Shown here in pieces: positions 8,231 through 28,120 of a stretch of 62,193 nucleotides of DNA. This DNA comes from Armatimonadota bacterium (lineage in GTDB: Bacteria > Armatimonadota > Hebobacteria > GCA-020354555 > CP070648). Below the pieces are notes generated by a model. The model did no database searches and was not told where the DNA came from. It saw nothing but the letters and a program-made list of their open reading frames with translations. How positions within the stretch are numbered: position 1 is the first letter of the stretch; every line of letters begins with the position of its first letter. The DNA lies in assembly GCA_035527535.1 (NCBI GenBank), contig DATLAK010000139.1:1-62193 (forward strand), written 5' to 3'. Made by a program: the position numbers and the translations under genes.

Positions 8231-8280
8231 CGCGCCCCGACTCGTCGGGGCGCGAATCGCGACTTCAATAGGAAGTCGCG
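8231..8280. repeat. Two adjacent perfect hairpins; the first belongs to REP family CCCCGAC-N3/4-GTCGGGG
   Basis: CGCGCCCCGA ctcg TCGGGGCGCG (8231-8254) and CGCGACTTC aatag GAAGTCGCG (8258-8280). Related hairpins at 26355-26374 and 59562-59582. Confidence 0.65.
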
Positions 8281-9505: not shown

Positions 9506-9512
9506 TAGCCCG

Positions 9513-10583: not shown

Positions 10584-10711
10584 CCCGAATGGCGCGCTGG
10601 CGGAACAGGACTGTGACGCGGCGGGACGAATCACCGCGGTGCGAAACCCGAAGTCCGACCTGTCGGTGATCTCGGCCTGGGCACATCATAGAAGCGAAGA
10701 GGAGTGCTCGA

Positions 10712-11143: not shown

Positions 11144-11234
11144 CAGGAGTTCCCGGAGGAGGCGAAAGCGAGAAGCGCGCCGCCAAGACCAGGAAACAAG
11201 GCCATTTCCATTTCGGGGGACATATGACTTAATC

Positions 11235-11284
11235 AAGGAAGAGCTGCCTGCTGGTTAGGAGATTATGGTGTGTGTCCCCCGAAT
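11235..11284 (+). repeat. About 50-nt motif AAGGAAG-N-CTGCCTGCYGGTTAGGAGATTAYGGTRTGTG-CCCC (copy A)
   Basis: Hand alignment with 13492-13544, same orientation. Confidence 0.65.
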
Positions 11285-11398
11285 CCCCCCGAATTCCCCC
11301 TTCGGTCTCGAACCGTCTCTCTCCGGTGTTCCACGGCCGTACGGGGAGATTTCCGCGCAGCCAGCGACGGGAGGCGAAATAGCGACTGTGACAGTGGC

Positions 11399-12253
11399 TC
11401 ACAGCGGGGTGTGTTTCAGCGTCGTCAACACGTCAACGAGGCAGGCGATACTGGCAAAGAGTCCGGTGCGCACACCCGCGGGACGGTCCTGGCGGCGTCC
11501 GCCCAGTTCCAGGTTGAGGATGCCGCCATAGCCGGCGGAGCGTAGCGCCCGCAGCACAGACGCGAGCGGCACCCGTCCCTCAGTCAGCGGGGCATGAGTC
11601 GCGCCGTCGGCGTCCAGGTCGTGGATATGCGTGTGGATGACCCGGCGGAGGAACGCATCGGGGGGGACAAGCATCATCACGCCCTGGCGGACATTGGAAA
11701 AGGCGTGGCCGAAATCCCAGCAGAACCCGACGTGCGGGTGGCCAATGCGAGCGTGCATGGAGAGCAGGCGCCGGTAGCTGACGCTGGGATCGTTGCCGCC
11801 TTTCGCTCGGTTCAGCTCCACGGCCACCCGCAGTGGCAGCCCCTGCTCCCCAGCATCGTGCAGCAGCTCGCGGACGGCGCGGATGGTCCGCGCAGCTAGG
11901 GCGTCCGTCGGCTCCTCCAGCGACTTGTAACTGTGCATGGTGACGATCGCATCTCGGCCCTGCTGCGCCATCTCCCGGCAGAGCGCCACCAGCGCGGGGT
12001 AGAGTGCCGCGGGCGTGGACGCGGGCAGCTCGCCATGAATGGTGAGGATACCCCCGGCATGCCACACTTGACGCGCGGCGGCCAACGCCAGCGCGGGGTC
12101 CGTGTGCGGGCCGACGGCGCGCAGCTCGATGGCTGTCACCCCCGCCTGCCGCAGTGCGGCAAGGGCGGTCGCGGGGTCGCCCAGCGCGCCGGTGAGCAGT
12201 TCGTCGGGTTCCCCGGCGACATAGGCGGGCGGCAGCGACACCCCGATTCTCAC
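11399..12253 (-). CDS. Sugar phosphate isomerase/epimerase (xylose isomerase-like TIM barrel)
   Basis: VAVELNRAKGG, WDFGHAF, HTHIHDLDADGATHAPLTEGRVPL and AGYGGILNLEL. Start set at GTG 12253, which overlaps the upstream stop as GTGA. Confidence 0.75.
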   Translation of the reverse strand: MRIGVSLPPAYVAGEPDELLTGALGDPATALAALRQAGVTAIELRAVGPHTDPALALAAARQVWHAGGILTIHGELPASTPAALYPALVALCREMAQQGRDAIVTMHSYKSLEEPTDALAARTIRAVRELLHDAGEQGLPLRVAVELNRAKGGNDPSVSYRRLLSMHARIGHPHVGFCWDFGHAFSNVRQGVMMLVPPDAFLRRVIHTHIHDLDADGATHAPLTEGRVPLASVLRALRSAGYGGILNLELGGRRQDRPAGVRTGLFASIACLVDVLTTLKHTPL

Positions 12254-13158
12254 AGCCCCATCTCTTCTCCCACCTCGGGCGCGCGCAACGGCACGTTGGG
12301 CGCGAGAGCGCCCCAGCACGATCGCACCAACGCGACATGGCGCCGATGCCAGAGGTCGTCGGTCGCGCGGGAGAATTCGTACAGGTGCGCCAGCACCACC
12401 GCCCGCGGGGCGCACGCGCGCAGGTAATCACAGAAGGCGTCAAGCAGCGGCGGGACCGAGTCCCCCGCACATCCGCGCCCCAGCCAGAGATGGGCGAAGA
12501 GGAGATCCACGGGGCCAAGTTGCCGGATCTCCGGCACGCCATAGTCACGCACGTCGCCGGGGAAGAGCCAACGCTGGCCGTCCACCTCCACCAGGTAGCC
12601 GGTGGCGTCCAGGCCGCAGAGTTGTCCGTCCGCCTGCCGGTACCAATGCCACCCGGGAAAGGGGAGCACGCCGATACCATCGAGCTCAAGGCGCTGGCCG
12701 TGCTGGGCGACGATTAGTTGTTTCTCATGCGGGTTGGCGTGGGCCCGCACGGTGGCAAGCATATGCTCGGGCACAACGAAGCGCACTCCGCTGCTGCGCA
12801 AGGCGGCCAGCAGGCGATAGTCTACGTGATCGTCATGGTCGTGGGTCAAGAGCAGGAACGACAGGTCCGCCAGTACCTCCATCGGCAACTCGCCAGGCAG
12901 GTCGGGCAGCAGCCGGGACGCGGGTATCACCGGATCGAGCGCCCACCGCACCCCGTGGGTGGTGAACAGATAGCTGGCGGCATACATCAGCCACCCCATC
13001 ATCGCGCGCGGCGGCTGCCGCCATGTCGCCAACATGCGCTGCCAGCGCGTGGGATACTCGCGGAAGAAACGGACCCTGGCCTCCGCGATCAGGCGCGCAT
13101 CTTCCTGCGCGGGCGTCAGCGCAACCGTCTCGCCCGGCAATAGGGCGTTGTCATACAT
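12250..13158 (-). CDS. MBL-fold metallo-hydrolase
   Basis: HxHxDH motif (LLLTHDHDDHVD) and later His/Asp ligand positions. Start set at ATG 13158 (MYDNALL). Confidence 0.75.
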   Translation of the reverse strand: MYDNALLPGETVALTPAQEDARLIAEARVRFFREYPTRWQRMLATWRQPPRAMMGWLMYAASYLFTTHGVRWALDPVIPASRLLPDLPGELPMEVLADLSFLLLTHDHDDHVDYRLLAALRSSGVRFVVPEHMLATVRAHANPHEKQLIVAQHGQRLELDGIGVLPFPGWHWYRQADGQLCGLDATGYLVEVDGQRWLFPGDVRDYGVPEIRQLGPVDLLFAHLWLGRGCAGDSVPPLLDAFCDYLRACAPRAVVLAHLYEFSRATDDLWHRRHVALVRSCWGALAPNVPLRAPEVGEEMGL

Positions 13159-14412: not shown

Positions 14413-16029
14413 GTGCACCATGGGAGACCGCTGGCGATGAACCTGAGAATCCGCGATGGTCGCGACTGGGCGTTTATCAACGGCGCGTGGAGCGAAGACG
14501 CCTGGGGGTGCATCTCTCCGCCGGACACGCCGGACCATCACGCCCTGGCGTTCTATCTGCCGCAGGCGTTCGCGGACGCGACCGTGGAGTTCGAGTTCCT
14601 GGCGAGCTATCGCGAGACCGGCGCCGGCGATGTCGGGGTCATCCTGCGCGCCCAAGCTGCCAATCACTACTATTGGGTCAGCTTCCCGTGGTGCGGCCAG
14701 CAGACGCGCGCGCGCCACTTCTGGGCGGCGATCTCCCGGGTTGACGAATCGGGCTACATCCGCAACCTCAAGCTGGCGCTGATCCCCGGCGTGCTCAGCG
14801 AGACCGAGCGCTGGTACCGGGCGCGAGTAGAATGCGTGGGCGGCGCCATCCGCCTGTGGGTTGACGACCGCCCCGGGCCGGTGGTGACCGACCTCGCCGC
14901 CGCCCCCGGGCGCATCGGCTTCGCCGGGTATGGGGGCTTCGCGCTGCGCAACCTGCGCGTCAGCGGCGATGCGGCGCCGGCACCTGCATGGGACGAGACC
15001 GCCCCGGCCGGTCGGGGCAACTGGTTTCACCCGGCGCCGGGCATCGGCGGCGAACAAACCCTGCCTTCGCTTTGTCGGGCGCCGAGGGGCGACCTGCTGT
15101 TGGCGATCCCGGCCACCCGCGCCGAGCGCACGTTCATCGTGCGGTCACGCGATAACGGGCATTCCTGGGGCGAACCGGTGGAGCTGCCGGCCGCGCTGCA
15201 CTGGGGCGTCGTGCACGCAACCAAGAGCGGTCGGCTGCTGCTGCAGGCGGTCCACGCCGAGCCCCGCCGCATCCTGATGGCGGAATCGCACGATGACGGG
15301 CGCACGTGGTCTGAACCCACGGCCGCCAAGCTGAGCGGCGACTGGCCCGCCGACCCGCCGCAGCTTCATGCCTACGGTGCGCTGCTGGAGCTGCCGGACG
15401 GCGCCCTGGTGCGGCTCCTGACCGGCAGGCTGGCGCGCGCCGCGGACCGGGAGGTGATGCAGTGGGGAGCCATGGAGGCGCAGGCGTTCGCCATTCGCTC
15501 GACCGACGGCGGCGCCACGTGGTCCGCGCCCGCGAACCTCGATCGCTTCGTCTGGCGGGGACAGGCGGGCGCGGCGGAGAGTTGCCTCGACCTCTCGGAA
15601 CCGGTGGGAGCGGTGCTTGATGACGGGCGCATCATCTGCTACATCCGCCCCATCTACTCCCCGTGGATGTGGGAGACCCACTCCGATGACGGCGGGCAGA
15701 CCTGGTCCTCGGCGCGGCGCGCACCCTTTCCCGGGTACGCCGCCTGCATGACGCGCACCAAGTCCGGGGCCGCGCTGGTGGCACACCGCTTCCCCGGCCA
15801 CACCATCCATCTCAGCCACGACGGCGGCCGCACCTGGGATGAGGGGACGACGGTGGACTTCCCGGTATGGGCGATGGGGGCGCTGCTGGAGGTCGAGCCG
15901 GAGGTGGTGCTGTTCGTCTACATGGACGCGAAACCGGAGCGGCTGCGCGCGCAGCGCATCCGCGTCACCGCGCAGGGGCTCGAGCCGCTCCCGGTCGAGG
16001 GGCAAGCCGCACCTGACCGTACTTACTGA
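14413..16029 (+). CDS. BNR-repeat sialidase-like glycoside hydrolase with N-terminal DUF1080/LamG-like domain
   Basis: Five Asp-box (SxDxGxTW) repeats: SRDNGHSW, SHDDGRTW, STDGGATW, SDDGGQTW, SHDGGRTW. N-terminal IRLWVDDRPGPVV...GRIGFAGYGGFALRNLRV resembles DUF1080. The start may be ATG 14437. Confidence 0.75.
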   Translation: MHHGRPLAMNLRIRDGRDWAFINGAWSEDAWGCISPPDTPDHHALAFYLPQAFADATVEFEFLASYRETGAGDVGVILRAQAANHYYWVSFPWCGQQTRARHFWAAISRVDESGYIRNLKLALIPGVLSETERWYRARVECVGGAIRLWVDDRPGPVVTDLAAAPGRIGFAGYGGFALRNLRVSGDAAPAPAWDETAPAGRGNWFHPAPGIGGEQTLPSLCRAPRGDLLLAIPATRAERTFIVRSRDNGHSWGEPVELPAALHWGVVHATKSGRLLLQAVHAEPRRILMAESHDDGRTWSEPTAAKLSGDWPADPPQLHAYGALLELPDGALVRLLTGRLARAADREVMQWGAMEAQAFAIRSTDGGATWSAPANLDRFVWRGQAGAAESCLDLSEPVGAVLDDGRIICYIRPIYSPWMWETHSDDGGQTWSSARRAPFPGYAACMTRTKSGAALVAHRFPGHTIHLSHDGGRTWDEGTTVDFPVWAMGALLEVEPEVVLFVYMDAKPERLRAQRIRVTAQGLEPLPVEGQAAPDRTY

Positions 16030-16245
16030 AAGATCAACTGCTCCACCTGCGGCGGCAGTTGCGAGGAGAAGTCCAGCAGGTGCCGGCGTTACATCGGCGC
16101 TTGCGCGCGAAGAGGTTTGGTCTTCGCACCGCCGAAATGTGTTTGCAGCCACGCGCGCGCCGCGGCCCAGCCGCGGCGCGCGGCATGATCCGGAGCTTGC
16201 GGAGCGCGTTGCCCGGCAGGCCGGCAACCGAAAGGAGTCACCCAG

Positions 16246-19200
16246 TTGTCCGACGCGAGAGAAACGCAGAAGCCAGGTCCCGATGTCGTGTACTTGGTGC
16301 CTGGTTTTCACAGCGACGCAGTGTGGCTTGAAGATCAACGCGACTACGCCGTGTCGCTGTTGGGAGACGTACGACAGAATCTTGAGATCTGCCGCGTCGA
16401 TCCCCACTACGGCGTGTTCCTGCACGAGCTGTCGTACTTGAAGCCCTACTATGACACTCACCCCGAGGAGCGCGGGCTCATCCGCGATCTGGTGCGTCAG
16501 GGGCGCATTGGCACGGGCGGTTCCTACAACCAGCCCGCCGAGAAGCTGATCAGCGCCGAGGGCATCATCCGCAATATCATCTACGGGCGCCTCTATCACG
16601 AGCGCGTCCTCGGCGACGAGCCGCTGGTGTACGCCCCGTGGGACGTCTTCGGCCACTGCGCGCAGCTATCGCAGATCCTGGCGCAATCGCGCTTTCTCGG
16701 CTGCTGCTGGTCGAAGCCCATCTCTGGGTTTTACCCGTTATTCTGGCACCGCGCGCCGGACGGCACCCGGCTGCTGATGCGGCGCCTGGGCTACGGCTAC
16801 CGGACGCAGGGGCAGGATGACCTGCGGGATCGCATCAGCAAGCAGTGCACCGAACTCACAGCGTACGGGCTCAATTGCGACGTGCGGCTCGACGCCAACG
16901 ACTTCAAGCCCCCCACCGCGTGGATGGCGGGGTTGACGGGGGGTCTGCGCGAAGGCACGCCCAGCATCCGGGTGAGCGGCTCGGGGCAGAGCAAGTTCAT
17001 GCTCGACGCCCACCGGCGCATCCGCGAGCAGGGCCTGCGCATACCGGAGACAGCGCGGGACATGGAGTACCATCATCAGGGCACCGCCATCACGCGCGTC
17101 CAGTTCAAGATCGGCAACCGCATGGCCGAGAACGCGATCGTCAATGCGGAGAAATTCGGCGCTTTCGCCGCCGCCCTCGGCGCGACCTATCCCGAACTCG
17201 CGCTGGACAAGGCGTGGCGGCAGCTCCTGTTCAACCAGCACCACGACGCGATCACCGGTCCCTGCTGTGACCGCGCATACCTCGACCTCATGGCCGCCTA
17301 CCGCGAGTCGCTGGAGCTGGCCGCGGAAGCGCTCGACTCGGCGCTGAGGTACATCGGCTCGCTGGTGGACACCGCCGCGCCCGCACCGGCGGCCGACGCG
17401 CTGCCGCTGGCGGTGTTCAACCCGCTCAACTGGGCCCGAACCGATGTCTGCCGGGTGACGGTGGAGCTGCCGGCGGGGTGGAAGGGCTTCGCGCTGCGCA
17501 CCGCCGAGGGCCGGGAGGTGGCGGTCGAACTGCTGGCGACCGCGAAGCGGCGGCGACGCCTGCAGGCCGACCTCCGTTTCATCGCGGCTGACATCCCGTC
17601 CCTAGGCTACCGCCTGTTCTACGTGACGCCGGCGCCGGAGATGCCGCCGCCGCCGGTGACGAAGCGGGGCGCGATGATCGAGAACGAGTTCTTCCGCGTG
17701 CGCGTGGATGCCGATCACGGCGGCATCGTCAGTCTCTACGACAAGCAGGCGCGTCGCGAGGTGCTGGATACGTCGCGCGGCCCCGGCAACGAGATCGTGG
17801 CCCTGGCTGAAGATCCGGCGCGCCGCGAACCCCCGTGGGAGGTGTGGACCACCGGCCCCCGGTGGTGCTCGCGCGACTACGAGGCGCAGGTGGAGCTGCG
17901 CGCGGGCGCGGTGAGCAGTGCGCTGGTCATCAAGGGGGCGATGAAGGACTGCCGGCGCGAGCAGGAGATCACCCTCTACCCGGGCCTGGCGCGCATTGAC
18001 TGCGTCACGCGGCTGGTGGACTATCGCGGCCAGCATGACCTGTTCGTGGTGACCTTCCCCTCGGGGCTGCAAGGGGTGGAACCGATATTCGAGGAGCGCT
18101 GCGCGGTGGTGACCCGCAAGGCGAGCAAAAGCGTCTTCGATTTTCGCACCCAGGCGCAGAACAACCTGTCGGAGTGCGGACTGCGCGCGGCCTACCAGTG
18201 GTTCGCTCACGGCTCCTGCGCGCGCCTGCGCATGGGAACCAAGGGCACTGCCAACTCCGCGTCATTCACCCTGGGCATGGTCGCGCTGGTCATCCCCCAC
18301 GGGGACGCGGTCGAGGACCAGGCATACGCCCTGGCGGGAAAGCTCATCAGCAAGGGCGTGTTCTGCACGCCGCTGTTCGATGACGGCGACCGCCAGCACC
18401 GCGGCGTCTCCGTCCCCCAGGACCTGACCGTGCAGGAGGAGCTCAACGCCGACCTGCCGTGGGGGACGAGCTTCCGCGTCGCGCTCGACATCAAGGGCGA
18501 CAATCACTACGCGAGGGGGCTGATCAACCGGCTCTCCGATCACGCGAAGGGCGGCTTCCGCAAGCGGCGCGACCAGGCGGGCCACGCGTTCGTGTTCGTG
18601 CTCGACGACGAGGTCCCGGAAGGGTGGCCGGCGCTGCCGGTGCTGATCCTGTCGGCGCAGGGTGCGGATGATCTGCGCCGCGGCCTCGATTACATGATGC
18701 GCGATTTCGCGGCGACGGCGGATATCAACCTGCCGGCGAACGTCAACGCCTCGGGCTCCCGCCAGCAGGTGGACGACTACACCCTGGCCATCGCCAACCT
18801 CGGTAACATCATGACCAGCATCGAGGCCGACAACACCATGGTGCTGGGGCTGATGCACACTTCGCCATGGGGCGCGACGCCGTGGGGTCGCGACCGCCTG
18901 CCGTTCTTCATCGTACCGGAGCACAAGACTCACGTTTACCCGTATGCGCTTTGTCCCTCCGCGGGCGACTGGCGGGCGGCGCGCGCCTACCGCGTCGGCT
19001 ATGAGTTCAACAACCCGTTGCTGGCGGTGGCGCTGGCGCAGCACGGCGGAGCGCTGCCCGCCGCCATGAGCTTCCTTACGGTCGAGGGCGATAACCTGAT
19101 CGTGACCGCGGTGAAGCGCCACGGCAACCCCGCGGGCGCGTTCGAGGGCAGGGCCCCGGTGGAAGACCCGGGCGTCACCGTACGCCTGTACGAGGCCACC

Positions 19201-20127
19201 GGCAGTCCCGTCTCCCTGCGCCTGGGTTGGTTCGCGCCCCTGGGCGAGGCGTGGCAGACCAACCTCTTGGAGGAACGCGAGCGCCCGCTGGCCCCGTGCG
19301 GGGAACGCGGCACCTGCGTAGGCGATGACGCCGGCCCCTTTTCGATCAAGACCTACAACCTGCGCGGCGGCGCGCCCGTAGTACGCGGCGAGGCTTGCTC
19401 CCTGGGGCGCGAGACCGAGCCGGTGCAGCCGCTGCACATCCGCTACTGGGATCACAACCTGGGCGAGGCGCCGCTTGGCAACGCGCCGGTATCGGTGGTG
19501 TTGGAGGGCGCGGTCAAGACGGGAATCCACATCCGTCAAGGCGGCGTCACCATCAATACGCTCAAAGTCGCGGTCTGCAATAACTACCTCGACCAGCGCA
19601 TCAGCGGACGCGTGGAGCTGGTTGTGCCGGAGGGATGGAAGACCGTGCCGGCTCATGTGGACTATGACCTCGGTGCCAATGAGCACATGACCCAGGAGGT
19701 GGTGCTGTGCTTCACGAGCGACAGACGCTCGGGCCTGGTCAAGGCGCGGCTGGCGCACCGCGGGCAAGTCTATCAGGATGTGATCGAGGTCGGCGAGGCC
19801 CCGCGCATCGAGTGGGAGGTCAGCCGCCGCGGCGGGCGCGTGGAGGCGCGCCTGAAGAACGTCGGCGCGGATGCGGTCGAAGGCGGCGTCGTCCTCATCG
19901 GGCCGATGGAGACCTGGGGGCGGGCGGCGGCGCCCCTGGCGCTGGCGGAGTCATCGCCACCCGTGCAGGGGTTCGCGTTGGGGCCGGGCGAGGAGGCAAG
20001 CTACCGGTTTGCTCTCGCGCCCGTGCTCGGTCAGCCCAAGCTCCCGGACTACTGGGCGGTGGTCAAGATCTTCTACCACGGACATGTTGACTACAAGTGC
20101 GTGTCAGGTGCGCATGTCGAAGCCTGA
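16246..20127 (+). CDS. GH38 family alpha-mannosidase-like protein, unusually long (1293 aa)
   Basis: VVYLVPGFHSDAVW N-terminal metal-site region, DVFGH, and FNQHHDAITG (class II mannosidase signature). TTG start with GAAAGGAG RBS. Long C-terminal beta-rich extension. Confidence 0.75.
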   Translation: MSDARETQKPGPDVVYLVPGFHSDAVWLEDQRDYAVSLLGDVRQNLEICRVDPHYGVFLHELSYLKPYYDTHPEERGLIRDLVRQGRIGTGGSYNQPAEKLISAEGIIRNIIYGRLYHERVLGDEPLVYAPWDVFGHCAQLSQILAQSRFLGCCWSKPISGFYPLFWHRAPDGTRLLMRRLGYGYRTQGQDDLRDRISKQCTELTAYGLNCDVRLDANDFKPPTAWMAGLTGGLREGTPSIRVSGSGQSKFMLDAHRRIREQGLRIPETARDMEYHHQGTAITRVQFKIGNRMAENAIVNAEKFGAFAAALGATYPELALDKAWRQLLFNQHHDAITGPCCDRAYLDLMAAYRESLELAAEALDSALRYIGSLVDTAAPAPAADALPLAVFNPLNWARTDVCRVTVELPAGWKGFALRTAEGREVAVELLATAKRRRRLQADLRFIAADIPSLGYRLFYVTPAPEMPPPPVTKRGAMIENEFFRVRVDADHGGIVSLYDKQARREVLDTSRGPGNEIVALAEDPARREPPWEVWTTGPRWCSRDYEAQVELRAGAVSSALVIKGAMKDCRREQEITLYPGLARIDCVTRLVDYRGQHDLFVVTFPSGLQGVEPIFEERCAVVTRKASKSVFDFRTQAQNNLSECGLRAAYQWFAHGSCARLRMGTKGTANSASFTLGMVALVIPHGDAVEDQAYALAGKLISKGVFCTPLFDDGDRQHRGVSVPQDLTVQEELNADLPWGTSFRVALDIKGDNHYARGLINRLSDHAKGGFRKRRDQAGHAFVFVLDDEVPEGWPALPVLILSAQGADDLRRGLDYMMRDFAATADINLPANVNASGSRQQVDDYTLAIANLGNIMTSIEADNTMVLGLMHTSPWGATPWGRDRLPFFIVPEHKTHVYPYALCPSAGDWRAARAYRVGYEFNNPLLAVALAQHGGALPAAMSFLTVEGDNLIVTAVKRHGNPAGAFEGRAPVEDPGVTVRLYEATGSPVSLRLGWFAPLGEAWQTNLLEERERPLAPCGERGTCVGDDAGPFSIKTYNLRGGAPVVRGEACSLGRETEPVQPLHIRYWDHNLGEAPLGNAPVSVVLEGAVKTGIHIRQGGVTINTLKVAVCNNYLDQRISGRVELVVPEGWKTVPAHVDYDLGANEHMTQEVVLCFTSDRRSGLVKARLAHRGQVYQDVIEVGEAPRIEWEVSRRGGRVEARLKNVGADAVEGGVVLIGPMETWGRAAAPLALAESSPPVQGFALGPGEEASYRFALAPVLGQPKLPDYWAVVKIFYHGHVDYKCVSGAHVEA

Positions 20128-20156: not shown

Positions 20157-23100
20157 TCACGTGCTGCGCACCTCGGCGGCGCAGCGGGCGACGGCAGGCA
20201 GCGGCTGGTGCCGCTCGATCCAGGCGCCGAAGATGCCCATGCTCAACTTGTGGCGTGGCACCACCTGCCCGGTCTGGGTCACCAGGTCCTTCTCGACCAG
20301 CCCTTCGAGGGCGAGGGTGACGGCAGCGGAGGAGAGCTCGCATCCGTGGGCCCGCAGCGAATCCGCGATCAGCGCTGACGTGGCGCCGCCGCGGCCGCAG
20401 TGGGCAATCGCCGCCAGCAGCGCCCGCTCGACCGCGTCCGGCTGCTCCCACAGGTAGCGCAGGTGCGTCTCGCCCCACTCGATGATTCCATCCACGCAGC
20501 CCTCGATCACGTCGTATGTCAAGTACGGCCGGTTGAGTCGCTGGCAGCGACTGACCAGGTAATGTCCCATGAGCTGCAGGAAGTAGGGATGTCCGCCGCT
20601 GAGCTCCCATATGCGATAGGCGGCGAGGCCGTCGCAGGCGATCCCCGCTTGCGCCATGGGCTGCACCACGCCCTCGTGGGCGGCGGATGAGTCTATGCGT
20701 CCCACCTTGCGATAGATCGCCAGATTGAACAGGAACGACCAGTAGTCCTCGCCCAGCTCCTCCAGCCGGTTGGTGCCGGACAGCAGGAAGGCGATGCGCG
20801 GCGAGTGCTGGATGAGGTGGCGAAGATAGGTGAATACGCTGTCCGCCAGCAGGCCGCTGCGCACCTTATGCTCCAGGTCGTCGAACTCGTCGAGCATGAC
20901 CAGCAGGCGCTTGTCGCCGGTGCGGATGAGTCGCTCCAGGAACCGCGGCAGCACCCCCAAGTCGGCGGCGAGTTCCTCCGGCGACGGCAGCCATGCCGCC
21001 GGCGCGCCCACGGCCTCCCGGCAGCGGTCGGCAATGGCGCGCCACAGGTGCCCGAGGTCACGCATCAGTACGCCCTGGACGTCAACGAACACCGGCCAAT
21101 AGGCGTCGCCGAAGCGCGCCTCCACCTGGCGCAGGATACTGGTCTTGCCGATCCGCCGCGGACCGATGAGGCCGACCACGTTCTCCTGGTAGGCCCCGTG
21201 CAGCGCCTCGCGCAGGAAGCTCAGGAGGTCCTCGCGCCCGATGAACATCGGCGAGTCACAGGCCAGCGGCTTGCCCGGCACGTAGGGGTTCTCCCGCGGG
21301 CGGGCGTCGGCGCACGGAGGCGCCGGTTCGAGCTGCAGGTCACAGCGGAAATCGGCGTGGTAATCGGTGCCGGCGGCGTCATCGTAGGCGACGGTGGCCG
21401 AGATGTCCACCGTCCCCGCCTGCGGTTGCGGGTGCTGGCCGCTCAGACGCAGGGGTAACAACATCTCCTCGCCGGGGGCCAGCTCTGCCAGCGGCCGTTG
21501 GTCGTGCGCGGAGACAATGTAGGGCGCTGGCGCCTCCGCGCAAACCCAGACGTTGGTGGCGGGAGCGTTACCCCGATTGCGCAGGTACAGGCCCAGCGTC
21601 ATCTCGGAATCGAGGCGCGGACGCTCCGGCAGCAGGGCGACCACTATCTCCGGATGGTCGGACAGGAAAGGTAGGACCGCCGAGACTGCTTCGGCGGCGG
21701 TGCCGAGCAGATGCGTGACCACCCGCCGATAGATGAGCGCGGGCGACCTGGCAGCTAGGGCTTGCCGCGACCGCAGCAACTGCAGCGCTTCCCTGAGGTG
21801 CGAAACCTGGTCCAGGCGCGACGACGCCTCGCACGCCGCGCGCAGGGGCTGAGCCGCGCACAATAATGCGTTAGTGTCTTCAATCCCGGGCACCAATGCC
21901 AGCACGTCCGCGAGCTCGCGCATCGAGGGGAAGCCTTGGCACGCCTGCACCAGTTGTTCGAGGGTGGGCGCGCGCAGCACCGCGCAGACGCCCTTGGCTG
22001 CGGCGCTCAACGCGGCGATAGCCGCGCCCTGGGGCTGTGCCTCCACCAGCGCGGCAAGGCGGTCAACGTGATCTTCCATGGGGTCGCGGCGAGCAAGGTC
22101 CACGAGTATGCCCATGAGGTCGGCGGTGACGAAATCGCGCGCCGCCTGGGCCAGTTCCTGCAGCACCCCCTCGCTGCCCGCCGCCACTCCGATGCGCACC
22201 CCGGCGCACAAGCGGGCCGCTTCGTCATGCGCCGCCAGCGCTGTCGCCAGCGCCTGCGCCAGTTGCGGTTCGGGAACGTCGGCCAGGTGCTCACCCAACA
22301 TCGCGACCGCGCGCCGGGGATCGTAGGTCCCCATCTCGCCGATGGCCCGGATGGCGTTGTGGCGCACCTCCGCGTGGTCGTCGCGGCGCAGCACGTCCAG
22401 CGCCTCCCACACGTCAGTTGCCACCTGCGGATCGTCGGCGGCCACCGCGAGGCTGCGGGCCGCCGCCGCTCGCACCGCGGGATGCGAATCTTTCGCCAGG
22501 TCGAGCAGCGACTGTCGCGCCTGAGGCGAGGACGCCCATACGCACTTGAGGGCCAACGCAGCGCGCGTCCGCACGACCGCCCACTTGTCATGCGCCAGCT
22601 CCGACAGAAGTAGGAGCACGGCGTGCCGTGCTCCTACGCCGCCCACGGCGGTCGCGTACTCGAGCCCGGCCGCCGCTCCCAGGCGTACATTGTGGTCGGC
22701 CGCTCCGGCAAACCGACGCAGCGCCCTGATCGCCCACTCCGGGCGCGCCGGGGCTGCGCGGCCGGTGGCCTCTGCGGCGGCGCCGCGAACGAAGGAGTCG
22801 TGGTCGCCCGCCAGTAGCTGCAGCATCGCGCAGGCCGCGTCGGCATCGGCGGCGGCGAAAGAGGCGGCGCTCATCGCCAGCTCCGCGCGCACCATGGGGC
22901 TGGGGTCCCGCGCGAGCGAAGTGAGCAAGCGCACGGCGGCGTCGGAATCGGGGTTGCTCGTTCCCGCCAGGGCGTGCGCCGCGCACCAGCGCCGGGAATC
23001 GTGGGCATCACCGGCGAGCCGCGCCGTCAGCTTGAGGGCGCCCGGAGCGGCCGCCGCCACGAGCTGTGCGAGGCCCGACGCAGCGCCCTGGTTGATGTAC

Positions 23101-23630
23101 TCGTCTGGTTTGGCGCTGGAGAACAGCAGGTCCGACAGCGCACGTACCGCCCGCACCGGGTGACCACGGCCTGCGCGGCCAATGGCTTCCGTCGCCGTCG
23201 CGCGCACCTGGCCGTCCATGTCACACGCGAGCGCCACCAGTAGATCGAAGGCGCTGTCGCTTTTCGCCGCGTGCTCCGCCAGCCCGGCGGCGACACCGAC
23301 GCGAACCTCGGCTTCGCCCGCCAGTTCCTCGCGGATCGCGGCCAGCACGCGTCCGTCCACCACGCAAGCACGGGATAACCAGTAGGCCCCGGCTTCGCGC
23401 ACCTCGGGGATGGGGTCGGCGCACATGCGCCTGAGGTCATCAATCGCGTCGCTCTGGGTCGCTGCCAGCGCGTAGAGGGCTGGTGCGGCACGGGCGCGGA
23501 GTTCGCAGGAGGGGCTGCGGAGCAGTCGTTCGATGGTTGCACGCGCCCAGCGATAGCGCTGAGCGTAGCGCCCCAAGCGGAGAGCATTGTGGGTCGAAGG
23601 GTCCGCTTCTCGCACCGAAGTCTGAAGCAT
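20157..23630 (-). CDS. HEAT-repeat / CARDB-like beta-sandwich / STAND-type P-loop ATPase / winged-helix protein (1157 aa)
   Basis: aa 45-500 carry repeated D.(S/P).VR..AA..L HEAT motifs. aa 675-770 are CARDB-like (LGLYLRNRGNAPATNVWV...LAPGEEMLLPLRL). NPYVPGKPL..FIGRE precedes Walker A GPRRIGKTS (nt 21138-21164). Walker B is LLVMLDEFDD (nt 20877-20906), followed by GGHPYF (GxP-like) and a C-terminal wHTH-like segment. Confidence 0.75.
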   Translation of the reverse strand: MLQTSVREADPSTHNALRLGRYAQRYRWARATIERLLRSPSCELRARAAPALYALAATQSDAIDDLRRMCADPIPEVREAGAYWLSRACVVDGRVLAAIREELAGEAEVRVGVAAGLAEHAAKSDSAFDLLVALACDMDGQVRATATEAIGRAGRGHPVRAVRALSDLLFSSAKPDEYINQGAASGLAQLVAAAAPGALKLTARLAGDAHDSRRWCAAHALAGTSNPDSDAAVRLLTSLARDPSPMVRAELAMSAASFAAADADAACAMLQLLAGDHDSFVRGAAAEATGRAAPARPEWAIRALRRFAGAADHNVRLGAAAGLEYATAVGGVGARHAVLLLLSELAHDKWAVVRTRAALALKCVWASSPQARQSLLDLAKDSHPAVRAAAARSLAVAADDPQVATDVWEALDVLRRDDHAEVRHNAIRAIGEMGTYDPRRAVAMLGEHLADVPEPQLAQALATALAAHDEAARLCAGVRIGVAAGSEGVLQELAQAARDFVTADLMGILVDLARRDPMEDHVDRLAALVEAQPQGAAIAALSAAAKGVCAVLRAPTLEQLVQACQGFPSMRELADVLALVPGIEDTNALLCAAQPLRAACEASSRLDQVSHLREALQLLRSRQALAARSPALIYRRVVTHLLGTAAEAVSAVLPFLSDHPEIVVALLPERPRLDSEMTLGLYLRNRGNAPATNVWVCAEAPAPYIVSAHDQRPLAELAPGEEMLLPLRLSGQHPQPQAGTVDISATVAYDDAAGTDYHADFRCDLQLEPAPPCADARPRENPYVPGKPLACDSPMFIGREDLLSFLREALHGAYQENVVGLIGPRRIGKTSILRQVEARFGDAYWPVFVDVQGVLMRDLGHLWRAIADRCREAVGAPAAWLPSPEELAADLGVLPRFLERLIRTGDKRLLVMLDEFDDLEHKVRSGLLADSVFTYLRHLIQHSPRIAFLLSGTNRLEELGEDYWSFLFNLAIYRKVGRIDSSAAHEGVVQPMAQAGIACDGLAAYRIWELSGGHPYFLQLMGHYLVSRCQRLNRPYLTYDVIEGCVDGIIEWGETHLRYLWEQPDAVERALLAAIAHCGRGGATSALIADSLRAHGCELSSAAVTLALEGLVEKDLVTQTGQVVPRHKLSMGIFGAWIERHQPLPAVARCAAEVRST

Positions 23631-23817: not shown

Positions 23818-24720
23818 TCAGTCCGCCGTTCGCTCCCCCGTCGGGATTCCCCATCTTACGGCTGATACATGATTCGAGGCACATGCCGCCAGTTCCTGCC
23901 ATACCCAGCGTGGCACTCTCACCGCCCCGATTGCTACCGGGCGCTCGGAGCGCGGGCCATGGGAATCCGTTCCCCCCGTAATCAGCAGGCCCAGTTGGCG
24001 CGCCATCGCGACGTAGTGCCGCGCGTGGGCCGCGCTGTGGTCGCAGTGAAAAGCCTCGAGGCCGGCCAGCCCTTGTTGGAGAAGCGCCTGGACGAGGATG
24101 TCGTCGCGCACCTTCGCCGGATGCGCCAGCACTGGGATGCCGCCGGCGGCACGGATGGCGCGCGCCGCCGCCTCGGGTGTCAGCCGGTAGCGCGGCACAT
24201 ACGCCGGCTGCCCGCGCCCGATGTACCGCGCGAAGGCCTCGGCGCCGGTCTTGACATGCCCCGCCTCCACCAGCGCCCGCGCCACGTGGGGCCGCCCCAC
24301 CGAACCACTGCCCGCGATCGCCGCCACGCGCGCCGCCTCCACCGGCAGGCCCAGGCCGGCCAGGCGTGCAACCATTTCCCGCATTCGCTCGACGCGGCGG
24401 CGCCGGATGTCCGCGAGCACGGCGTCCAGGGTGGGGGAGGTGTGATCTATGAAATAGCCGAGCACGTGCGCCTCGGTCGCGCCGCAATCGGTGTTGATCT
24501 CCACGCCCGGCACCACGGTGACGCCGAGGCGCTGCCCGGCCGCCAGGGCGGGCGCGATACCGTCGAGGGTATCGTGGTCGGCGATGCCCAAGACCTCGAC
24601 CCCGGACTCCGCCGCGGCGGCGACCGCCTCCTCGGAGGTGAAGGTGCCGTCCGACGCGCTCGTGTGCACGTGCAGGTCTATGGGGCTCACGGCGCGGTCA
24701 AGGCTGCGGGATGGCGTCAT
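23818..24720 (-). CDS. PHP-domain phosphoesterase (TrpH/YciV, RNase AM-like)
   Basis: IDLHVHTSASDGT, LGIADHDTLDG and ITGGTDSHG are metal-binding motifs of the PHP family. Confidence 0.8.
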   Translation of the reverse strand: MTPSRSLDRAVSPIDLHVHTSASDGTFTSEEAVAAAAESGVEVLGIADHDTLDGIAPALAAGQRLGVTVVPGVEINTDCGATEAHVLGYFIDHTSPTLDAVLADIRRRRVERMREMVARLAGLGLPVEAARVAAIAGSGSVGRPHVARALVEAGHVKTGAEAFARYIGRGQPAYVPRYRLTPEAAARAIRAAGGIPVLAHPAKVRDDILVQALLQQGLAGLEAFHCDHSAAHARHYVAMARQLGLLITGGTDSHGPRSERPVAIGAVRVPRWVWQELAACASNHVSAVRWGIPTGERTAD

Positions 24721-24849
24721 TCCGGCTCACTTCCCTGGAGGGTGCGCCCGGTCGCGGGGCGCTGCGGTAGAGGTAGGCCCAGGCCTGCTCCGCATCCATG
24801 AACGGCGCCTGCTCCGGCTGGGTGGCAGCGGAAGCTGGAGTGGGGCCGG

Positions 24850-25551
24850 TCACGAAGCTATGTCCAGGCTCGTCTTGACCCGCTCGCGCCGCCCGCTGCC
24901 CGGAGCCATGATTTCCGCCGCGAGTCGGCACGTGCCCGCTCGCACCGGCGTGACGTGAAGCTGCAGATCCAGCACGCCTCCCGCGGCGAGCGCCGGGAAC
25001 CACATGCGGCGCGTCCGGTCCGTGCGTCGCTGCCGGGAGGGTTTGGGCATGATCCGGTCCAGCCGCAGGTGTCGCTCGCAGGAGCGATCGAGTGCCACCA
25101 CGACCTGCTCCACGCGCCCGGGGCCGGGGTTCCAGATCTGGATGGAGATGATCGCGGGTTCGCGCACTGAGACCACCTCCGTCGGGGCGATCCTGGCGTG
25201 CAGCACCACCGCCGGCGCCGGGGGCGGCGCATAGTGGCGGGCGAGCAGCACCACCGCCAGCGCCGCCACGACGGCGAGGATGAGCGTCGTCACCCATACC
25301 CGGGATCGCACGAGCGCTTGCCTGGCTAGGTCCAGGGTTGACTTGTGGAAGGGGCATGCGAGATACCGGTCCGGGTCGCTGATGTGGAAATCATCAGGGC
25401 GCGAGATGGAGACGCAGTCGAGCATCTGCGCGTCGTAGTCCGCGCAGTAGCGGCACTTCAGCAGTTGCTCGTGGCAGCGCCCGCACCGCGGGAAGGGCAC
25501 GATGCCCTCGCGGCACAACTTGCCGCATTGCGGGCATTTGAGGGTTACCAT
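24850..25551 (-). CDS. Hypothetical zinc-ribbon / TM / beta-sandwich membrane protein
   Basis: N-terminal CPQCG..x..CGRCH..x..CRYC, one TM (VWVTTLILAVVAALAVVLLA) and a C-terminal CARDB-like segment (IISIQIWNPGPGRVEQVVVAL...LAAGGVLDLQLHVTP). Start set at ATG 25551. Confidence 0.55.
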   Translation of the reverse strand: MVTLKCPQCGKLCREGIVPFPRCGRCHEQLLKCRYCADYDAQMLDCVSISRPDDFHISDPDRYLACPFHKSTLDLARQALVRSRVWVTTLILAVVAALAVVLLARHYAPPPAPAVVLHARIAPTEVVSVREPAIISIQIWNPGPGRVEQVVVALDRSCERHLRLDRIMPKPSRQRRTDRTRRMWFPALAAGGVLDLQLHVTPVRAGTCRLAAEIMAPGSGRRERVKTSLDIAS

Positions 25552-25579
25552 CGAAGCACCCGACGCCGCCTCGTCTCGC

Positions 25580-26332
25580 TCACTCAGCGATGATCGCGCG
25601 TACGGTTTCCAGATCCGCCGGTTTGTCCACGTCAAATGCCAGCTCGGGATAGTGCGAGATGACGGCGCGCGCGCGGCCGCCCAGCACCTCCCCCAGGCGC
25701 TGTTCGAGGTGGGCGATGGTCAGGCGCCCCGTCAGCAGGCGCAAGATGAACCCGGCGCCCAACATCCCCGCCAGGCGCAGCGGGTGCTTGCGGTGGCGGT
25801 AGAACTGGCGCACCAGCTCGCGGTGGCGCGTGATGAACTCCGCGTTAACCAGCACCGCATTGCTGCCGGTGAAGGTGCCCTCCCGCACGTGCGCGTAGGT
25901 GCGATGCCCGTGCGGGAACCGCCGCTCGACGTCCTCCTTGGGCACGATCGCGTAGGCCAGGTCCGCGCCCAGCGGCTGCGCCTGGCCGAGGAAGTCGTCG
26001 AACGCCTCCGCGGTCACCAGCGGCGCGTCCGCGTGGGCGAACATCGCCATCCCGGAGTTGCCGAGCGCCGCGAGCGCCAGCTCCACGTTGTCAAGCAGCG
26101 TCTCGCCCGGCGCCACCATCAGGTCCGCCAGCCCCGGCGCAATTCGCTGCTGCACCTCGGGCGGCGCCACGACGACGATGCGCTGCGCCCGCGTCGTGCC
26201 CCGGAGCGCCGCCAGCACGCGCTCCACCATCGGGCGCCCGCCGACCTCGATCAGCGCGCGGAACGGGGTCCCGCTCATCTGCGCGAGCCGACCGTGCTCT
26301 ATACCAGCCGCTAGAACGAGTGCGTCCGCCAT
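25580..26332 (-). CDS. Nucleotidyltransferase family protein (MobA-like NTP_transf_3)
   Basis: N-terminal ALVLAAGIEHGRL....PFRALIEVGGRPMVERVLAAL fits the glycine-rich NTP-binding loop of GT-A nucleotidyltransferases. Confidence 0.6.
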   Translation of the reverse strand: MADALVLAAGIEHGRLAQMSGTPFRALIEVGGRPMVERVLAALRGTTRAQRIVVVAPPEVQQRIAPGLADLMVAPGETLLDNVELALAALGNSGMAMFAHADAPLVTAEAFDDFLGQAQPLGADLAYAIVPKEDVERRFPHGHRTYAHVREGTFTGSNAVLVNAEFITRHRELVRQFYRHRKHPLRLAGMLGAGFILRLLTGRLTIAHLEQRLGEVLGGRARAVISHYPELAFDVDKPADLETVRAIIAE

Positions 26333-26343
26333 TGGTCACGCAG

Positions 26344-27264
26344 TCACAAGGTGGCACCCCGACCCGTCGGGGTGTCCGCAGCCTCGACCACGACCCCGCG
26401 GCCGATGCTGTGCACCGCCCGCGCCCATATCCCATTCTTGGACATGCGCGCCGCCGACTCCTGCGCGGCTCTGTGCGTGGGGAAGATGCCGAAGACGGCG
26501 GCCCCGCTGCCCGCCATCAACGCCCCCAGCGCGCCCTCGCTCAGCAGGTGCGCCTTGAGGTCGGCGATATCAGGGCGCTCGGGGAGAACCGCCGCCTCGA
26601 GGTCGTTATGCAGAAGCCCCGCGATCGCCGTCGGCGACGCGCCTCCCGCGGCGCGCGCCATCGCCTGGCACGCACCCTTGGGGCTCCGCGGCAGGCGCTT
26701 GGCGTACGCCCACGCCGTGGACACCCCGGGCCCCTGCCGGACGAGCACGAAATGCAAGCGCGGCCCCGCACCGACGCGCTCGACGCTGTCGCCCCGGCCG
26801 GTCGCCAGCGCGCAGCCACCCTCGACGAAAAAGGGACCGTCGGCGCTCAGCCGCGCGGCCAGCTCCTGGAGCTGAGCGCGATGCAGCCGCAGGCCCCACA
26901 GGCGCTTGAGCCCCACCAGCGTCGCCGCCGCATCGCTGCTGCCGCCGCCCAGTCCCGCCTGCATCGGGATGTGCTTGCGCAGGCCGATGGCCACGCCCCG
27001 CCGCGGCGCCGGCGGCAGGAACTCGCTGAGCAGCGCCGCCGCTTGATAGCAGAGGTTGGTTTCGTCGGTGGGGACCCCGGGCTCGCGGCAGGCGATGGTG
27101 ATGCCGCGCGGACGGGCGGTGAGCGTGACCTCGTCCCACAGCGAGACGGTTTGGAGTACGGTCTCGACGCGATGATAGCCGTCGGGCAGATGGCCCAACA
27201 CCGCCAGCGCCAGGTTGACTTTGGCCGGCGCGCGCAGCTTGAGGCACGAGGAAGGTAGCGCCAC
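26344..27264 (-). CDS. ispE: 4-diphosphocytidyl-2-C-methyl-D-erythritol kinase
   Basis: APAKVNLALAVLG...DGYH and GHMP kinase motif IPMQAGLGGGSSDAAATL. GTG start. Confidence 0.85.
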   Translation of the reverse strand: MALPSSCLKLRAPAKVNLALAVLGHLPDGYHRVETVLQTVSLWDEVTLTARPRGITIACREPGVPTDETNLCYQAAALLSEFLPPAPRRGVAIGLRKHIPMQAGLGGGSSDAAATLVGLKRLWGLRLHRAQLQELAARLSADGPFFVEGGCALATGRGDSVERVGAGPRLHFVLVRQGPGVSTAWAYAKRLPRSPKGACQAMARAAGGASPTAIAGLLHNDLEAAVLPERPDIADLKAHLLSEGALGALMAGSGAAVFGIFPTHRAAQESAARMSKNGIWARAVHSIGRGVVVEAADTPTGRGATL

Positions 27265-27273: not shown

Positions 27274-28026
27274 TTAGAACGTCAGCTCATTGCTGCGAAT
27301 CTTCCAGCGGCCCTCCTCGCGCATGGCGAAGAGGGTGCCGCTCAGGGTCTTGGGCAGCACGCGGTAGAGGATGACCTTGGCGGTGAAGGTGAGCTTGATC
27401 TCGGCGCCCGGCGCAGGCGTGGAGTCGAATTCGATGTCGCGGATCGTGGCCGGTTGTCGGTCGCGGAGGCGGGCGAGCCAGTCGAAGGCCAGCTTGTCCA
27501 TCGTCCGGTAGTCGCCCTTGAGCCAGGCCGCCAGATAGCGCCGCGCCGCCTCCGTCGCGGCCGGCTCCTGCGCTTCGTCCCGGCGGGTGACGCTGCGCGG
27601 GGGAATGCGCGCGCCCAGCGGCGGCTCGGTGAAAAACGCGACCTGGCGCACGCGCCAGGGATTGCCCTTGACGTCGTCGAGCATGGTCAGGACCAACGCG
27701 CCTTCGTCGGGCAGCTCCCCGTCGCGCACCGCGCCGCTGAAGCTGACGGCGGCGCGATGCGCATCCACCCGCGCCTGCTCCAGCCGCGGCATTCGCGCGA
27801 AGGGACACGGGCCGAACTTGTCGGCCGGCCGGGTCGGGCTCAAGCTGCGCGCGGTCGCCCCGTCGCCGGCGAGCAGCGCCCGCAGATAGGTTTCGGCGGC
27901 CCTCTCCGCGCCGGGGTCCGCGGCCGCCGGGGAGCGCCCGTGCACGAGGGCAGCGAGCATCACCGCGACCATCAGCGCCGCGGTCAGGCTTTGTGTCAGC
28001 CGATGGCCGAATGGTGCGTTCTTCAT
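27274..28026 (-). CDS. Hypothetical secreted protein with two NTF2/DUF4878-like halves
   Basis: Signal peptide MKNAPFGHRLTQSLTAALMVAVMLAALVHG. Internal duplication (AAETYLRALLAGDGATA / AARRYLAAWLKGDYRTM). Start set at ATG 28026. Confidence 0.5.
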   Translation of the reverse strand: MKNAPFGHRLTQSLTAALMVAVMLAALVHGRSPAAADPGAERAAETYLRALLAGDGATARSLSPTRPADKFGPCPFARMPRLEQARVDAHRAAVSFSGAVRDGELPDEGALVLTMLDDVKGNPWRVRQVAFFTEPPLGARIPPRSVTRRDEAQEPAATEAARRYLAAWLKGDYRTMDKLAFDWLARLRDRQPATIRDIEFDSTPAPGAEIKLTFTAKVILYRVLPKTLSGTLFAMREEGRWKIRSNELTF

Positions 28027-28120
28027 GCTATCGCCGACGCTCGGCCGCCGCTGCGGGTTGCTTGGCGGCCGGCGACTACCTACTATATTCCCCATTCCCG
28101 CCGCCGCGCCCTGCCCGTCG

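Follow-up and report, generated by a model that had tools for sequence, protein, structure and literature searches.

STAND NTPases are central to innate immune receptors and to several bacterial regulators, and in almost all studied examples, to our knowledge, sensor, switch and effector are carried on one chain. A divided arrangement has been predicted, by computation only, in the two-STAND (nSTAND2) operon of proteobacteria, where one of the two nucleoside triphosphatases (NTPases) is eroded and the output domain is HEPN or GT4 (Kaur et al. 2021, PMC8195603). This operon is the closest described kind to the system analysed here, which we approached from a 62,193-nucleotide (nt) stretch of an Armatimonadota bacterium (contig DATLAK010000139.1, assembly GCA_035527535.1), hereafter the window. 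The gene under study, gene A, is a single open reading frame of 1157 codons with an ATG start (20157..23630, minus strand), as the initial annotation of this DNA had it, and encodes a HEAT / Ig-like / STAND-type NTPase / winged-helix protein, as delimited by the reading frame, Pfam, AlphaFold2 (AF2) models and an alignment of eight sequences. Comparison with homologous loci suggests that the effector missing from this protein is a separate partner gene, gene B, which adjoins gene A in relatives and would have become unlinked from it in the window lineage. With modest confidence, we favour a STAND-type NTPase switch built from two proteins, in which gene A encodes the input subunit, a sensor or scaffold, and acts in trans on the gene B product in the window lineage.

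The C-terminal part of the protein defines its class. We used two AF2 models, one of the full-length protein (mean predicted local distance difference test, pLDDT, 85.6) and one of the C-terminal 502 amino acids (aa) (pLDDT 90.4, predicted TM-score 0.88). In the C-terminal model, a P-loop NTPase core with a helical lid (aa 800-1052; 20475..21233; this and all other features of gene A lie on the minus strand) is recognised from the fold, from Foldseek matches and from invariant columns, and both models close with a winged-helix domain of H-H-H-E-E topology (aa 1066-1141; 20208..20435), at which position relatives match MarR_2, HTH_20 or DprA_WH. The core is introduced by the motif NPYVPGKPL...FIGRE (aa 781-800; 21231..21290), which sits on an extended linker and in which N781, P782, G786, K787, P788, L789, F796, G798 and R799 are invariant in the eight-sequence alignment. 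In the Walker A motif GPRRIGKTS (aa 823-831, with K829; 21138..21164), G823, R825, R826, G828, K829, T830 and S831 do not vary in alignments of 8 to 15 sequences; in a 31-sequence alignment (A2), G823, R826, G828, K829 and S831 are still invariant, and R825 and T830 are kept in at least 90%. The Walker B motif LLVMLDEFDD (aa 909-918; 20877..20906) has L913, D914, E915, F916, D917 and D918 invariant in the eight sequences and D914 and E915 in the 31. Core and lid further contain the sensor-1/Arg segment SGTNRLEEL (aa 951-959), the conserved YWSFLFNLA (aa 963-971) and the GxP-like GGHPYF (aa 1012-1017), which is invariant in the 8-, 15- and 31-sequence alignments. The lead motif, both Walker motifs and GGHPYF lie exactly where the initial annotation had placed them, the winged-helix-like C-terminus that it described is present, and loss of the Walker motifs in homologs, which it had named among the observations that would speak against its reading, is not seen in the 8-, 15- or 31-sequence alignments.

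A Foldseek search of the C-terminal model against the PDB ranks 2qen (PAB2304; E=8e-12, TM-score on the target 0.63) and 2fna (SSO1545; E=1e-10, TM-score 0.57) first, followed by archaeal Orc1/Cdc6, Drosophila ORC, plant NLR resistosomes (wheat, Arabidopsis) and CED-4. At the sequence level, the NTPase and winged-helix segment has zero matches to PDB sequences at E<=10. In Pfam, the protein matches AAA_22 (E=6e-6, aa 816-959) and ATPase_2/PF01637 (E=0.012, aa 796-952), the latter at 15.9 bits and short of the gathering threshold of 33.2 bits; nSTAND1 (PF20703; gathering threshold 27.1 bits) gives no match at E<=1. Homologs do pass the nSTAND1 cut-off, i.e., L008 (36.4 bits), L009 (38.6), L014 (35.1), L018 (32.2), P0046 (33.7) and P0090 (58.9), and by sequence comparison the window protein is tied to nSTAND1 by transitive homology only. 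As modelled, with Walker A and B motifs, an alpha/beta core, a GxP-like lid and a winged helix, the gene A protein is a STAND / ORC-Cdc6-type P-loop NTPase module, and the motifs, the AF2 fold and the Foldseek matches thus support the earlier view of an NTP-dependent switch of this class. A function as an Orc1/Cdc6 replication initiator was rejected, given the lack of any PDB sequence match at E<=10, Foldseek identities of 14-17% and the bacterial host. Pfam, NCBIfam and PADLOC detect no nuclease, protease or TIR domain in the polypeptide, in agreement with the annotated absence of an effector domain. Nor is it a routine member of a housekeeping family: a phycobilisome lyase or NblB-type protein was considered and discarded, since the NCBIfam models PRK09687 (44.6 bits against a cut-off of 275) and NblB (34.9 against 300) report repeat-level similarity only.

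The N-terminal half is an unbroken HEAT-type alpha-solenoid of about 34 helices in some 17 helical hairpins (aa 11-565; 21936..23600) in the full-length model, matched in Pfam by HEAT_2 (E=4.5e-27 in eight stretches) and HEAT (E=4.1e-15). The HEAT-like repeats had been recognised in the initial annotation, at a length of about 450 aa that falls about 100 aa short of the modelled solenoid. Foldseek with the full-length model returns only HEAT solenoids, with Integrator subunits, PP2A-A and karyopherins on top, and a profile of alignment A2 searched against the PDB is dominated by alphaRep and PP2A-A HEAT proteins, the profile having retained HEAT columns. The annotated helical linker appears in the full-length model as three long helices (588-601, 605-626 and 632-656; together aa 588-656, 21663..21869) connecting the solenoid to an eight-stranded Ig-like beta-sandwich (aa 662-768; 21327..21647) that is present in both models. 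The Ig fold proposed for this segment thus stands. Its CARDB label does not: no named Ig family is matched more than weakly at the sequence level (NPCBM_assoc, E=0.12, aa 674-722), and the domain is therefore better termed a generic Ig-like sandwich.

Neither the domain order nor the lack of an effector on the same chain is particular to gene A. An exhaustive phmmer search with aa 656-1157 against 1.84 billion cluster representatives returned 6772 proteins at E<=1e-3; tightening the limit to E<=1e-10 leaves 3481, and to E<=1e-30 leaves 742. Among the best 150 representatives, which range from 355 to 2423 aa, the match begins within the beta-sandwich and ends at the protein C-terminus in nearly all cases, and in most of them the sandwich is retained together with the NTPase (matches start at query residues 2-30). 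What precedes the Ig-NTPase-winged-helix unit varies, from HEAT repeats to an FG-GAP propeller, a Pkinase-AAA_16-GAF-PAS array, GAF alone, a receiver domain (REC) or, in Chloroflexota members, TCAD9 with APH-like and NUDIX domains. As judged from these matches, an N-terminal sensor with a C-terminal NTPase is a family rule across at least 742 clusters. The order of domains given in the initial annotation, with the repeat array N-terminal and the NTPase C-terminal, is right, and the architecture, which was not recognised there, recurs throughout this family. Close full-length homologs of the HEAT type are rare: 7 are found in 5.8 billion sequences, five of them at 91, 56, 54, 51 and 49% identity and two more distantly related. 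Among the short members, P0026-P0028 (530-546 aa) carry a response-regulator receiver domain ahead of the NTPase module, which suggests that some members of the family are wired to two-component phosphorelays.

The genomic context of the relatives points to the partner. Scanning GTDB, one genome per species, with the NPYVPGKPL lead motif as the pattern yielded 56 loci, from Armatimonadota, 'Hebobacteria', two metagenome-assembled genomes (MAGs) labelled 'Bacillota' and many Anaerolineae, with one locus per genome and few Armatimonadota genomes matched. Directly downstream of gene A in the loci of the distant homologs P0006 and P0007 and of P0002 (56% identical) lies a gene for a protein of about 550 aa that combines an nSTAND2-type NTPase with HD_5, and across the genome loci having a downstream open reading frame, that frame encodes such a paralogous NTPase, gene B, in 48 of 53. 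A metagenome scan seeded with gene B gave 79 loci; here, gene A abuts gene B in 29 of the 30 unique HD-GYP-type B loci having at least 3.5 kb upstream, L071 being the sole exception. The distance between the two genes is -4 to +86 nt in most loci, and stop and start codons often overlap, as in L018, where the genes share 4 nt. The nSTAND2 domain of gene B in relatives scores 29.9-41 bits against a Pfam cut-off of 24. In the HEAT clade, the B protein ends in a canonical HD-GYP domain (HD_5 at 1e-33 to 1e-38; motifs RGH..HDIG..HHERLDGSGYP), which is replaced in Chloroflexota by EAD7. The B protein also carries the motif GSPFADLF. Both A and B keep the Walker A GKTS and the Walker B DE(F/V)(D/E) in all aligned loci, and because a profile built on B also matches the NTPase of A (1e-11 to 1e-27), the two NTPase modules are paralogous.

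Several pairs depart from this pattern. The B protein paired with P0006 (L007, 5811-7454) reads 'LEIG' at the site of the catalytic 'HDIG' motif, and its HD-GYP domain may be catalytically dead. A Chloroflexia MAG (L015) encodes a 1546-aa A protein with an FG-GAP propeller at its N-terminus (7073-11713); about 2.4 kb upstream, a B-like sequence (3214-4637) is spread over two reading frames and may be a frameshifted or rearranged partner. The pairs of Anaerolineae (Chloroflexota; L020-L063), e.g., L023 (7094-11350, then 11378-12673), combine a protein of about 1400 aa with TCAD9, APH-like, NUDIX, Ig and NTPase domains and an nSTAND2 NTPase of about 430 aa ending in EAD7. TCAD9 and EAD7 tie the family to Aravind's network of effector-associated domains. 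These Chloroflexota pairs show no linkage to the three genes that follow gene B in the HEAT clade.

The first of those three genes encodes protein C, a TPR protein of 400-440 aa whose C-terminal part has one or two transmembrane helices; the second encodes a long-form NfeD and the third a Band7/stomatin protein, and all three products are membrane-anchored. Among loci with enough downstream sequence, NfeD follows B in 31 of 31, Band7 in 30 of 31 and C in 29 of 31 (C is not found in L073, L074 and L098). The order A-B-C-NfeD-Band7 is maintained among loci with B proteins that share only about 43% identity, and is seen in L002 (13846-19219), L006 (5016-10460), L008 (on the Armatimonadota chromosome OY970296.1), L010, L012, L014, L017 and L059 as well as in about 25 metagenome loci (L073-L118). 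A literature search combining HD-GYP, STAND, NfeD and Armatimonadota found no paper describing this five-gene cluster, the main text of a 2026 STAND census does not mention the HEAT-N-terminal and HD-GYP types, and for neither two-STAND version, the one described here or that of Kaur et al. (2021), did we find an experimental characterisation in the literature.

In the window, by contrast with these relatives, gene A has no second NTPase beside it: tblastn and the B profile find no B, C, NfeD, Band7 or CCA-adding enzyme gene in its 62 kb. The position held by gene B in relatives is filled by a GH38 alpha-mannosidase gene (16246..20127, plus strand; Pfam Glyco_hydro_38N, mid and C domains), which converges on gene A and ends 29 nt from its stop codon. 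Adjacent B is also lacking in L144 (P0001), which is collinear with the window at 93-96% nucleotide identity, GH38 included, and in L003 (P0004) and L001 (P0005). Other members of the same subclade, L002, L064 and L065 (P0002) and L070/L143 (P0003), retain A-B-C-NfeD-Band7, with unusually long A-B gaps of 380-573 nt in L002, L064 and L065 and, as its coordinates suggest, a similar gap in L070. The block upstream is common to the subclade and comprises, in order, an uncharacterised gene (about 260 aa), genes for a GHMP kinase and a MobA-like NTP-transferase, a second uncharacterised gene (about 230 aa), a CCA-adding enzyme gene that the window lacks, a PHP gene and gene A, a synteny kept down to 49% identity.

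The complementary half of the cluster exists on its own. Loci L068 and L071 carry B-C-NfeD-Band7-metallophosphatase-PMT with no A in the 5.8 kb upstream, where L068 has two DUF4838 glycosidase-like genes and L071 a divergent CdsA-Dxr-RseP-IspG operon; the orphan-B locus L071 and the orphan-A locus L003 come from the same metagenome. Ranked by identity to L002, the A side runs window > L143 > L003 > L001 and the B side L068 > L070 ~ L071, broadly in parallel, and L071B has L070B as its nearest relative, in keeping with P0004, whose nearest relative is P0003. The simplest reading of these comparisons is that the cluster broke between A and B and that both parts were kept. Ratios of nonsynonymous to synonymous substitution rates (dN/dS) were compared among the unlinked copies. 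For L003 and L001, two orphan A genes that are 69% identical, the ratio is 0.30 over the whole gene, falling to 0.22 in the NTPase and to 0.16 in the winged helix, which indicates sustained purifying selection on orphan A after the separation; window and L144 give 0.35 overall. By segment, the HEAT arm (0.27-0.28) is comparable to the NTPase (0.22-0.37), and the linker helices (0.47-0.52) evolve fastest. As a separate observation, the glycan-uptake and degradation stretch of the window lies on the side of gene A where relatives have B, and the L068 breakpoint likewise carries the glycosidase-like DUF4838 genes.

As a plausible mechanism, the HEAT solenoid, whose structural neighbours (PP2A-A, Integrator subunits and karyopherins) are scaffolds, would bind a protein or ligand; binding would license the NTPase modules of A and B to co-oligomerise in an ATP-dependent manner; and co-oligomerisation would switch the HD-GYP domain of B. 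This domain is predicted to hydrolyse cyclic di-GMP (c-di-GMP) or a related cyclic nucleotide, probably at the membrane, beside C, NfeD and stomatin. In the window lineage, a rearrangement would have split A from B, leaving A by the PHP / NTP-transferase / GHMP-kinase cluster and B-C-NfeD-stomatin elsewhere in the genome, where A would remain functional and act on B in trans.

A number of points weigh against this proposal. The interaction between A and B is deduced from gene adjacency and paralogy, and the substrate of the HD-GYP domain is a prediction. The window protein itself falls below the Pfam cut-offs for nSTAND1 and PF01637. With no B in the 62-kb window, the presence of B in this genome is presumed, and three other family members, L019, L057 and L062, also have no adjacent B, so that A might work alone. 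A dN/dS of 0.35 between window and L144 denotes only moderate constraint, with a value of 0.72 in the winged helix that is based on few substitutions. Finally, TCAD9 and EAD7 of the Chloroflexota members, both described from conflict systems, count against a purely physiological role of the family.

The last point bears on the most serious competing explanation, that A-B(-C-NfeD-stomatin) is an antiviral or abortive-infection system in which the HEAT arm senses a phage protein, the STAND proteins oligomerise, and HD-GYP or the membrane proteins arrest growth, the window gene being the sensor of such a system. The families nSTAND1 and nSTAND2 were both defined in predicted counter-invader systems; TCAD9 occurs in A and EAD7 in B of the Chloroflexota relatives; a constant NTPase core behind a variable N-terminus follows the 'grammar' of conflict systems; the few Armatimonadota genomes matched suggest a patchy distribution; and NLR resistosomes and CED-4 are among the structural matches. 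Against this, none of the five proteins matches a PADLOC model. For gene A, PADLOC-DB v2 returns nothing significant (best OloA at E=1.6e-4, through the HEAT repeats only, and PDC-S27 at E=0.006), and B, C, NfeD, Band7 and the Chloroflexota pair give only sub-significant HEAT, Cas3-HD and PDC-S27 noise. The neighbourhoods of the window and of its homologs consist of housekeeping and glycan-utilisation genes, with no defence gene seen among the annotated genes flanking gene A in the window; synteny is retained to 49% identity, with one copy per genome in the scan; the sensor arm does not evolve fast relative to the NTPase, by the segment ratios given above; many N-termini in the family are classic signalling inputs (GAF, PAS, REC, kinase); and HD-GYP, a second-messenger phosphodiesterase, would be atypical as a killing effector. 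The context observed thus sets housekeeping flanks, subclade synteny and the lack of a PADLOC match against a sparse Armatimonadota distribution and TCAD9/EAD7 in Chloroflexota. The conflict-type role suggested in the initial annotation fares neutrally to negatively by the checks proposed there, and we regard an antiviral function as rather unlikely. On the narrower question of physiology or defence, we lean modestly towards envelope or second-messenger signalling over phage defence, because the family uses signalling-domain inputs, the output enzyme acts on a second messenger, the locus is fixed and present as a single copy, the sensor does not evolve fast and a defence context is lacking.

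More doubtful still is the view taken in the initial annotation, in which the gene A protein is an NTPase switch complete in itself, needs no partner NTPase and has an output that went unrecognised, e.g., in the linker, Ig or winged-helix segments. Gene A is conserved although unlinked from B in four subclade loci, and the 380-573-nt gaps in the linked members of the subclade imply separate promoters; L019, L057 and L062 can be read in the same way. Yet Pfam, NCBIfam, PADLOC and the fold search reveal no catalytic or effector domain, A and B adjoin in 29 of 30 clade loci, often with overlapping stop and start codons, and orphan B loci occur in matching lineages. These observations argue against a stand-alone function, which we consider improbable.

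The winged helix raises a further alternative, namely that gene A encodes an ORC/Cdc6- or MalT-like regulator that places this domain on DNA and uses its NTPase to control neighbouring genes, e.g., the PHP / NTP-transferase / GHMP-kinase cluster. Orc1/Cdc6-DNA complexes rank among the best structural matches, the winged helix of relatives matches MarR_2 and HTH_20, and the PHP cluster is conserved directly upstream within the subclade. However, a winged helix belongs to every STAND/ORC module and by itself is no evidence of DNA binding, no sequence-level relation to solved Orc/Cdc6 structures is found (no PDB match at E<=10), and the partner conserved clade-wide is B. PHP lies directly upstream of A in L001, L002, L003, L143, L064, L065 and L070 and not in the wider clade. 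With its linkage confined to the subclade, the PHP / GHMP-kinase / NTP-transferase cluster was rejected as a functional part of the system, and the conserved PHP neighbour that the initial annotation had asked about reflects synteny, not a system component. DNA-bound regulation of the neighbours is, in our estimate, quite improbable. Decay of gene A to a remnant once the rearrangement had removed B, to which the loss of partner and operon context and the window-L144 ratios (0.35 overall, 0.72 in the winged helix) could point, is the least probable explanation of all, as the 3.5-kb frame is intact in four independent unlinked lineages, the NTPase motifs are all invariant, and L003 and L001 show ratios of 0.22 (NTPase) and 0.16 (winged helix).

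The surroundings of gene A in the window complete the description of the locus. The PHP-domain gene (23818..24720, minus strand; Pfam PHP, 1.7e-10) lies upstream of gene A at an intergenic distance of 187 nt; the upstream gap (given there as 188 nt) and the convergent GH38 gene that the initial annotation reported for gene A are thus both present. A promoter and terminator scan around gene A found no terminator and one weak promoter-like site, which is intragenic; Rfam and tRNA scans found no RNA gene near gene A, the sole RNA gene detected in the window (Rfam, ARAGORN) being a tRNA-Arg(CCG) at 49025-49099 (plus strand). Beyond PHP, only about 130 nt (24721-24849) separate this gene from the uncharacterised gene of about 230 aa (24850-25635, minus strand), with no CCA-adding gene between them, at the place where L001, L002, L003 and L143 carry a CCA-adding enzyme / PolyA_pol-HD gene of 509-537 aa. 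GHMP kinase and MobA-like NTP-transferase follow at 25580-27264 (minus strand), flanked by 24850-25635 and 27274-28095, both conserved and without a Pfam match; this block, syntenic in all members of the subclade, may be a sugar-1-phosphate activation cassette.

The genes around gene A are otherwise of housekeeping or glycan-utilisation type. A protein with BNR and 3-keto-disaccharide-hydrolase domains precedes the GH38 alpha-mannosidase, which carries an NPCBM_assoc domain (together 14413-20127, plus strand). The stretch 677-4374 (plus strand) encodes TonB and a TonB-dependent receptor that carries CarboxypepD_reg, and because of these two proteins the host is taken to be diderm. At 6584-7858 (plus strand), a single 424-aa open reading frame joins regions 2 and 4 of an ECF-type sigma factor with a TPR array at the C-terminus. 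The MnmA of the window is 69% identical to that of the Armatimonadota MAG CP070648.1, the next named matches reaching at most 57%; this MAG keeps MgsA-MnmA and does not keep the A cluster.

For the window, the message is that the 'effector-less giant' would be explained by a partner encoded in trans, with no new stand-alone mechanism, and the five-gene cluster of the relatives is a more interesting object than the window gene alone. In this family, input and output are divided between two NTPases that are paralogous and, apparently, both active, and one clade adds HD-GYP and the NfeD-stomatin pair, whose role in bacteria is poorly understood. Should A and B indeed interact, the pair would offer a testable model of hetero-oligomeric STAND signalling and a first functional entry point into a family whose clusters number from several hundred to a few thousand. 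A broader proposal, which we put forward only tentatively, is that A-B-C-NfeD-stomatin is an undescribed five-gene module of Armatimonadota-like bacteria in which an active STAND pair gates cyclic-nucleotide hydrolysis at a stomatin/NfeD platform, that the wider family represents a general 'two-STAND relay' of signal transduction, and that the window lineage has uncoupled the input and output genes and retained both. If true, the logic of such a relay would be analogous to that of two-component systems, with varied inputs (GAF, PAS, REC, kinase, propeller, TCAD9) joined to an nSTAND2-output protein.

Several described systems share parts of this organisation. The archaeal PF01637 proteins PAB2304 (2qen) and SSO1545 (2fna), the best structural matches to the NTPase and winged helix, have the lead-in 'NPF..G.P...F.GRE', a Walker A of the form GxxxxGKTS and a C-terminal winged helix in common with gene A. 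They differ in being stand-alone ATPases of about 350 aa without HEAT arm, Ig domain or paired NTPase, and the gene A sequence stays below the cut-off of their family. For nSTAND1 (PF20703; Kaur et al. 2021), relatives of gene A exceed the gathering threshold, whereas described members usually have an N-terminal effector or adaptor and C-terminal repeats, and the NTPase of gene A is C-terminal. Avs and other bacterial NLR-like sensors, NLRs, Apaf-1 and CED-4 follow the same logic of a repeat-domain sensor combined with an oligomerising STAND NTPase; in gene A, the sensor instead comes first and the NTPase last, no effector is present on the same chain, and neither a PADLOC match nor a defence-island context is found. 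On the output side, gene B resembles RpfG-type HD-GYP c-di-GMP phosphodiesterases in its HD...HHExxDGxGYP signature and HD_5 match, with an activity that is predicted from sequence, and differs from them in having a STAND NTPase instead of a receiver domain as its input.

The two-STAND operon of Kaur et al. (2021) remains the nearest relative in design. In both cases, i.e., in the relatives of gene A and in the proteobacterial operon, two adjacent and co-directional genes encode STAND NTPases with winged helix-turn-helix domains, the first with a variable or unknown N-terminus and the second an nSTAND2 protein with a C-terminal output domain, and hetero-oligomerisation of the two NTPases is proposed for each. 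The first protein here carries HEAT and Ig domains (or FG-GAP, GAF/PAS or TCAD9-NUDIX), and the output is HD-GYP or EAD7, there HEPN or GT4. Both NTPases here have intact Walker A and B motifs, whereas one is eroded there; a membrane TPR protein, NfeD and stomatin accompany the pair in the HEAT clade; and the hosts are Armatimonadota-like, there proteobacterial. The window departs furthest from the operon, with no second NTPase gene next to A or anywhere in its 62 kb, whereas the relatives have one in 48 of 53 genome loci and 29 of 30 metagenome loci.

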